Part shown: piece by piece, positions 45,871 to 46,057 of the stretch
How the letters are laid out: each line of letters begins with the position of its first letter
Position numbering within the stretch: the stretch's first letter is position 1
From: Escherichia coli
GTDB lineage: Bacteria; Pseudomonadota; Gammaproteobacteria; Enterobacterales; Enterobacteriaceae
Strand: one strand, 5' to 3'
Length of the DNA stretch: 64,000 bases
Assembly: GCF_050920415.1 (NCBI RefSeq)
Contig: NZ_CP169309.1
The notes under the pieces: model-generated
Database searches by the model: none
What the model saw: only the letters and a program-made list of their open reading frames with translations
What the model was told of the DNA's origin: nothing
Position numbers and translations under genes: made by a program

Positions 45871-46057
45871 TGCCGGATGCGACGCTTGCCGCGTCTTATC
45901 CGGCCTTCGGGATTGCACATGTAGGGCGGATAAGGCGTTCACGCCGCATCCGCCAATGGCGCGGTGCAAGTGCCGGATGCGACGCTTGCCGCGTCTTATC
46001 CGACCTGGGGGATTACACATGTAGGGCGGATAAGGCGTTTACGCCGCATCCGCCAAT
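45871..46057. repeat. BIME (two tandem ~87-bp units, each an inverted REP pair)
   Basis: Unit 45871..45957 and unit 45971..46057 are near-identical (TGCCGGATGCGACGCTTGCCGCGTCTTATCCG...GTAGGGCGGATAAGGCGTT.ACGCCGCATCCGCCAAT), separated by 13 bp; lies between eutG and eutH. Confidence 0.85.

Follow-up and report, generated by a model that had tools for sequence, protein, structure and literature searches.

The eut operon and its largest intergenic gap

The eut operon of Escherichia coli is present in full in the window, as the whole 64,000-nucleotide stretch of DNA analysed here is called, and comprises 17 genes in the order eutS-P-Q-T-D-M-N-E-J-G followed by H-A-B-C-L-K-R. The operon is silent without ethanolamine and cobalamin, and its activator, EutR, is encoded at its far end. 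Upstream of the junction of interest lies eutG (44682-45869, + strand), which encodes an ethanol dehydrogenase matching the NCBIfam model NF011998 EutG over its full length with 889.6 bits against a cut-off of 556, and which ends in the stop codon TAA at 45867-45869 (+). Downstream, eutH (46086-47312, +) encodes the ethanolamine permease and scores 873.3 bits against NF011665 EutH, the cut-off being 574. NCBIfam models further place EutE and EutJ upstream and EutA downstream of this pair, eutL and eutK being assigned by position only. The operon is uninterrupted in this strain, with eutA and eutB adjacent to each other (11-nt gap, 48712-48724), in contrast to K-12 MG1655, where the cryptic prophage CPZ-55 abuts eutA.

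Most other junctions between the eut genes overlap or measure 6-45 nt, and the 216-nt gap between eutG and eutH is the largest of the operon. The second-largest, the 106-nt gap between eutM and eutN (42037-42142), gave no REP core in the REP scans. The sequence-only reading of this DNA had proposed a tandem BIME consisting of two inverted REP pairs within the eut operon between eutG and eutH, and the repeat searches, RNA folding, REP cores and NCBIfam assignments of the flanking genes all agree with this. The array was also said to fill the whole intergenic region, which is nearly so: 187 of the 216 nt are covered, leaving 1 nt after the TAA and the 28-nt eutH leader (46058-46085, +) outside. 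Read directly from the sequence, this leader holds a Shine-Dalgarno motif, GGGAG, at 46073-46077, 8 nt before the ATG, and it is the counterpart of the 27-32 nt spacer found in REP-free Citrobacter, Yokenella and Pluralibacter. A sequence search of the eutG-eutH spacer found neither a sigma-70-like promoter nor an intrinsic terminator, and eutH expression is thus expected to depend on read-through from upstream. Within eutH itself, a 17-nt palindrome, CATCATGTACATCATGA, at codons 6-15 (46103-46130) was picked up as an inverted repeat and also as a terminator-like element; the peptide encoded there, IIMYIMM, is conserved, and the palindrome is most likely a side effect of the coding sequence.

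Architecture of the repeat array

A direct-repeat search recovers two 90-nt copies, at 45868-45957 and 45968-46057, which are 93% identical and lie 100 nt apart from start to start, and Tandem Repeats Finder reports the array at 45871-46057 with a period of 100, 1.9 copies, 94% matches and a score of 339. The boundaries given before for the array coincide exactly with the latter. The description of two near-identical 87-bp units holds insofar as there are two units of 87-90 nt with 93-94% identity, but the period is 100 nt and not 87, because a 13-nt junction (45958-45970) has to be added to the 87-bp conserved block.

Each unit consists of a Z2 core, GATGCGACGC...GCGTCTTATC, on the + strand, followed by a Y core, GATGCGGCG...CGCCTTATC, on the - strand, the cores having been located by variable-gap regular expressions. 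REP 1 (45871-45905, +) is of the Z2 type, in iREP orientation on the transcribed strand, and its core GATGCGACGC...GCGTCTTATC folds into a hairpin of -22.8 kcal/mol (z = -5.6), the stem of which begins at 45872, 2 nt past the eutG stop codon. The flanking tetranucleotide is CTTC, where K-12 has CTAC. A linker between Z2 and Y follows at 45906-45922, delimited by alignment with the K-12 eut and REP325 units, its 3' end overlapping the GTAG of the Y REP at 45921-45924. REP 2 (45923-45957, -) is of the Y type, with the core GATGCGGCGTGAACGCCTTATC on the - strand and a hairpin of -20.9 kcal/mol (z = -4.7), and forms the first half of the match to the Rfam model naRNA4 described below. The junction between the units, GGCGCGGTGCAAG, matches the naRNA4 model's linker, enlarged by a 4-nt insertion. 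In the second unit, REP 3 (45971-46005, +; Z2 type) forms the weakest hairpin, at -16.8 kcal/mol, with a weakened stem foot (CCGACC) and the flank CTGG instead of CTAC, and REP 4 (46023-46057, -; Y type), with its GTAG at 46021-46024, has the loop variant TTTAC, which is common to the last unit of K-12 and BL21.

All four hairpins, ranging from -16.8 to -22.8 kcal/mol, have z-scores of -4.6 to -5.6 relative to dinucleotide shuffles, and for none of them did any of the 200 shuffles fold as well as the native sequence. The paired hairpins within a unit belong to different REP types (Z2 read from the + strand, Y from the - strand) rather than being copies of one palindrome, and the Z2 and Y loops are of unequal lengths. 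The array is flanked by an 8-nt direct repeat, CAATAAAT, at 45863-45870 and 46054-46061, the first copy of which includes the eutG stop codon. The same octamer is present in single copy in the REP-free Citrobacter spacers (gcacaataaAT...). The pair looks like a target duplication, part of which may belong to the repeat unit itself.

Assignment to the BIME-2 class

Catalogues of REP and BIME elements in E. coli go back to the 1980s-1990s, and the element between eutG and eutH is of an already known kind, K-12 carrying the same array at the same site. By definition, a BIME-2 combines z2 with y REPs, repeated in tandem and joined by short linkers, whereas a BIME-1 is a lone z1 and y pair whose long L linker often contains an IHF site (Ton-Hoang et al., PMC3333891). 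The REPs described here alternate in inverted orientation, Z2(+) Y(-) Z2(+) Y(-), and as the Z2 and Y types, the tandem copies and the short linkers all match the former definition, it is essentially certain, going by the sequence, that the element is a head-to-tail BIME-2 of two 100-nt units. Like the eut array, BIME-1 (RIP/RIB) elements are extragenic and contain an inverted REP pair including a Y REP; their z1 REP, their single-copy state and their long conserved L linker with an IHF site are, however, all lacking in the eut array.

Several features of the individual repeats point the same way. The REP core GATGCG...CTTATC is found in all four copies, as is a 2-nt internal mismatch of the stem, with GC against AA at stem positions 8-9. 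The conserved tetranucleotide gives a mixed picture: GTAG stands 5' of the stem foot in both Y REPs, while its complement is altered in both Z2 REPs (CTTC and CTGG) at the position where not only K-12 but also BL21 has CTAC. The Rfam model naRNA4 (RF02564), which describes a Y-linker-Z2 pair, matches 45924-46005 (+) over its full length (positions 1-77) with 73.4 bits and E = 6e-13, above the gathering score of 59.5 bits and far beyond chance. The array is extragenic, and a 1.1-kb query containing it finds matches in each E. coli genome, the median number of places being 7. Elsewhere in the window, a single Y REP lies at 16474-16497, a Y/Z2 pair at 21127-21203 with its two copies at 21131 and 21176, and a single Z2 REP at 32503-32528; of these, the pair at 21127-21203 is the sole other match to naRNA4 above threshold and, at 89 bits, scores higher than the eut array.

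The RefSeq feature table of K-12 (NC_000913.3) contains no REP feature at the eutG-eutH site, nor does it contain one at REP325, and this absence is uninformative because the table carries no REP features generally. A literature search combining eutG, eutH and REP returned no paper on the eutG-eutH spacer.

Relation to REP325 and other characterised repeats

The closest characterised relative of the eut array is REP325, the BIME-2 between yjdM and yjdN of K-12 and the source of naRNA4, which is also the best-studied functional model, acting as both attenuator and stabiliser. Like the eut array, REP325 consists of alternating Y and Z2 REPs with a 100-nt period and separates two genes of one operon that are read in the same direction; when a unit of each is aligned, the match extends over both hairpins. 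The two differ in size, with 5.8 units in REP325 as opposed to 1.9 in the eut array, and in their linkers, which measure 13 and 17 nt in the former and 17 and 12 nt in the latter and differ in sequence as well. They also differ in phase, REP325 starting with Y on the transcribed strand while the eut array starts with Z2 directly after the stop codon. Differences within the stems are paired and preserve base pairing, as in GGCCGG/CCGGC compared to GGGCGG/CCGCC and GCCTGATG/ATCAGGC compared to GCCGGATG/ATCCGGC.

The classical intra-operon REP pair between malE and malF reportedly protects the upstream message from 3' exonucleases (Newbury et al. 1987, as cited in PMC12306157 and PMC6061677). This stabiliser likewise sits between two genes of one operon, though it is a single pair at a different locus, and it is likened to the eut array by description only. 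For REP325, deletion of the array lowered the mRNA of the upstream gene yjdM (log2 fold change -1.74) and raised that of the downstream gene yjdN approximately 10-fold, the attenuation being partly Rho-dependent, and where REPs separate the members of a tandem gene pair, expression across the genome is skewed to the upstream gene, though with a wide spread and dependence on context (bioRxiv 10.64898/2026.03.23.713779). In term-seq work, stable hairpins, REPs among them, were shown to set the 3' ends of transcripts terminated by Rho and to protect these ends from exonucleases (PMC6061677). REPs located at most 15 nt from a stop codon stall ribosomes and cut the output of the upstream gene, in the account of Liang et al. 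2015 as cited in PMC12306157.

Alleles of the junction within E. coli

The joined flanks of the array match in 5,410 of 5,426 complete E. coli genomes, and alleles were read from the distance between the flanks in 60 records taken at even steps down the ranking of the approximately 5,400 genomes. The expectation that copy number would differ between strains was borne out in these 60 genomes, in which the array varies from 1 to 5 units in steps of 100 nt. Two units, as in the window, are the most frequent state (25 records), followed by one unit (19); three units occur in 4 records, four in a single record and five in 3. The remainder comprises a 71-nt remnant in 4 records, all O157:H7 or close relatives, a 141-nt insert of a different repeat in 3, and one split match caused by an insertion of IS1397. 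None of the 59 sampled E. coli with an uninterrupted junction has an empty site, each retaining some structured repeat.

The exceptional alleles differ in kind. In the O157:H7 remnant (e.g. strain 1130), a deletion has removed the 5' half of the Z2 REP, and the Y REP has decayed to GATGCTGCGTGAAGCCTTATC, leaving a spacer of 99 nt. The 141-nt allele (e.g. strain 98222) is not a BIME at all, the array being replaced by a 138-nt G+C-rich repeat that has several internal inverted repeats (CCCCTCGCCCC / GGGGAGAGGG / GGGTGAGGGG) and is flanked by the direct repeat GCAATAAA. This repeat has a median of 15 locations in each genome, falls into no Rfam family in an Rfam scan and may resemble the 'box C' class; the allele was seen in 3 of the 60 sampled records, or about 5% of E. 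coli, and 265 records carry it at no less than 99% identity. In strain SK1402, the IS3-family element IS1397 (~1.4 kb) lies in the loop of the first Z2 REP, between ...GATGCGACGCTTGC and TGCCGCGTCTTATC, with TGC duplicated at its junctions. IS1397 targets palindromic units, inserting into the loop (PMC1525189), and its position in SK1402 is therefore independent biological confirmation that the hairpins are palindromic units. The insertion comes to lie between eutG and eutH of the operon and is probably polar on eutH-R.

K-12 MG1655 has the same two Z2-Y units in the same 216-nt spacer at the same site, and the two sequences align without gaps, whereas BL21(DE3) carries three units. A few substitutions separate the K-12 array from that of the window: both Z2 REPs are followed by CTAC and have the stem foot CCAGCC in K-12, compared to CTTC and CTGG, and CCGGCC and CCGACC, in the window. 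The coding sequence flanking the array is only 92-96% identical between the two strains. More broadly, the eut genes of this strain (43900-48000) are 92-98% identical to K-12 per 500-nt segment, the 3' end of eutG reaching only 92%, and one or two of the approximately 5,400 E. coli genomes are at least 99% identical to the eut region; the hyf region of the same window (10000-12500), by comparison, is ~98% identical to typical strains. An import of the eut genes from another Escherichia was considered and rejected, the window resembling E. whittamii, Escherichia sp. E1V33 and MOD1-EC7003 no more closely than it does K-12. The divergence could reflect an old allele, recombination or high diversity of the eut genes.

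The eutG-eutH junction in related genera

A degenerate pattern for the N-terminus of EutH, run against species-representative genomes, yielded 33 loci, for which the true eutG stop codon was determined by tblastn with the EutG C-terminus. Five Citrobacter genomes, Yokenella and a Pluralibacter metagenome-assembled genome (MAG) have no REP at the junction but a spacer of 27-32 nt between intact flanking genes, and the eut operon thus exists without any REP between eutG and eutH. A single REP is found in Salmonella enterica subsp. diarizonae (67 nt) and C. sedlakii (60 nt), while other Citrobacter and Pseudocitrobacter carry a pair in the order Y then Z in spacers of 119-123 nt. Klebsiella has REPs of the Klebsiella type in spacers of 194-216 nt, and other Escherichia have Z2-Y arrays of 1 to about 5.5 units. 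Since the REPs at this one junction are specific to genera and differ in order and number, the junction has been colonised by REPs recurrently and independently.

The array may have been inserted into an ancestral short spacer, which would fit the direct repeats bracketing it in Escherichia (CAATAAAT) as well as those bracketing the alternative 138-nt repeat (GCAATAAA). An Escherichia-type eutG-BIME-eutH junction with one Z2-Y unit and the E. coli leader also occurs in a MAG labelled Citrobacter sp. HRGM_Genome_0066, the EutG C-terminus of which is 97.5% identical to that of the window, compared to ~78-82% for true Citrobacter loci. To judge by these matches, its contig or bin is probably Escherichia-derived or mislabelled.

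Proposed effect on operon expression

The reading favoured here, with a probability of about 0.6, is that the array would partially attenuate transcription into eutH-eutR, protect the upstream mRNA and possibly lower the amount of EutG, while being a selfish repeat by origin. The array would be transcribed as part of the operon mRNA, in which its four hairpins would block 3'-to-5' exonucleases, giving a more stable upstream eutS-eutG fragment. The untranslated gap of 216 nt would uncouple translation from transcription and lead to partial, partly Rho-dependent termination, and such termination would leave fewer transcripts of eutH, eutA, eutB, eutC, eutL, eutK and eutR than of the upstream genes. 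The first hairpin, positioned 2 nt behind the eutG stop codon, may in addition stall terminating ribosomes and thereby reduce EutG. Attenuation of the downstream genes and ribosome stalling, both of which the sequence-only reading had missed, appear to fit the geometry of the junction better than simple stabilisation does. As for its origin, the array is probably a selfish or neutral genomic repeat, which may spread and expand via the activity of a REP-associated transposase or through replication slippage and recombination. Expansion by any of these routes is proposed as the reason why copy number differs among strains.

The most serious alternative, to which we would give somewhat less than even odds, is that the array is purely a passenger, a neutral or slightly deleterious parasite at an insertion-tolerant junction, where REPs accumulate beside REPs and eut expression is not affected in any meaningful way. 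The REP-free spacers between intact genes in the five Citrobacter genomes, Yokenella and Pluralibacter are what this predicts, as are the repeated independent colonisation apparent from REP types and orders differing by genus and, within E. coli, the variable copy number, the decayed O157:H7 remnant, the other dispersed repeat and the IS1397 insertion; the Z2 copies of the window, moreover, no longer have the CTAC/GTAG tetranucleotide retained in K-12. Alleles so varied, extending from REP-free genera through 1-5 units to the O157:H7 remnant, a different repeat and a 1.4-kb IS, speak against a role that is required or finely tuned. An array without any effect is harder to reconcile with the architecturally identical REP325, which alters the expression of its neighbours up to ~10-fold, or with the lack of an empty site among the 59 sampled E. 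coli with an uninterrupted junction, and it is unlikely that RNases, Rho and ribosomes would overlook four hairpins of -17 to -23 kcal/mol in an untranslated stretch. The passenger account is, however, one about selection and not about mechanism, and it is partly compatible with attenuation and stabilisation.

A role at the level of DNA, in which the BIME-2 would serve mainly as a strong gyrase site that removes the positive supercoils of operon transcription, or as a topological boundary, is unlikely to be the principal one. No BIME-2 is known to affect its neighbouring genes topologically, which counts against such a role. Gyrase cleavage sites are strongly over-represented in BIME-2 elements independently of transcription and fall mostly on y REPs, of which the array has two, though only a subset of BIME-2 elements is cleaved (PMC6379681), and the accessible part of the supplementary text of that study names neither eutG nor eutH. 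REP325, furthermore, gave neither REP-REP contacts nor an effect on the nucleoid (bioRxiv 10.64898/2026.03.23.713779). The sequence-only reading had named IHF or gyrase as possible ligands of the array; the gyrase half alone is plausible, with the Y REPs as candidate cleavage sites at the DNA level, whereas the class of the element and the missing core motif speak against IHF.

Processing of the units into small RNAs like naRNA4, which would bind HU and condense the nucleoid, is very improbable. Such a role was originally proposed for the RNAs of REP325 (PMC4550694), and the Rfam match at 45924-46005 exceeds the gathering score, but the model in effect fits any Y-linker-Z2 pair and has a second match in the window at 21127-21203, and the proposal has been disputed by a follow-up study from 2026 (bioRxiv 10.64898/2026.03.23.713779). 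At this locus the RNA would, in any case, rarely be made, because the eut operon is silent under most conditions.

Hardly credible is an IHF-binding element of the BIME-1/RIP type that bends DNA within the operon: the sole point in its favour is that IHF binding has been stated for some BIMEs in general, while IHF sites belong to the long L linker of BIME-1 (PMC3333891), the eut element is a tandem of z2 and y with linkers of 17-19 nt, and the IHF core motif WATCARNNNNTTR finds no match in 45860-46095 even with one mismatch allowed. The least probable reading of all is that an ORF across the array (e.g. 45870-46070, 66 aa) encodes a real small protein, as the ORFs noted earlier do exist (45870-46070 and 45964-46059 on the + strand, 45688-46020 and 45996-46307 on the - strand) but are spurious, consisting wholly of REP sequence, changing length in 100-nt steps or vanishing among strains, missing from REP-free relatives and annotated in none of the RefSeq records of the identical or K-12 locus; they are artefacts.

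Possible implications for ethanolamine utilisation in E. coli

For annotation, the eutG-eutH spacer is best entered as a repeat region of the BIME-2 type, disregarding the ORFs that cross it. As the sole large untranslated stretch among the 17 genes, the array sets the upstream genes of the operon apart from those for the permease, the lyase and the activator, and it does so with lengths that change in 100-nt steps among lineages. These lengths form a natural allelic series, convenient for relating BIME-2 copy number to polarity within an operon and extending the work on REP325. It is conceivable, though rather improbable, that the polymorphism of 1-5 units acts as a heritable strain-specific dial, each 100-nt unit strengthening the attenuation. 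Should this be true, more units would mean a lower dose of EutH, of the EutBC lyase, of the reactivase EutA and, above all, of the activator EutR, which would shift both the stoichiometry of shell to enzyme and the threshold of the positive feedback of the operon, and E. coli lineages would then differ in the ease with which they use ethanolamine in the gut.
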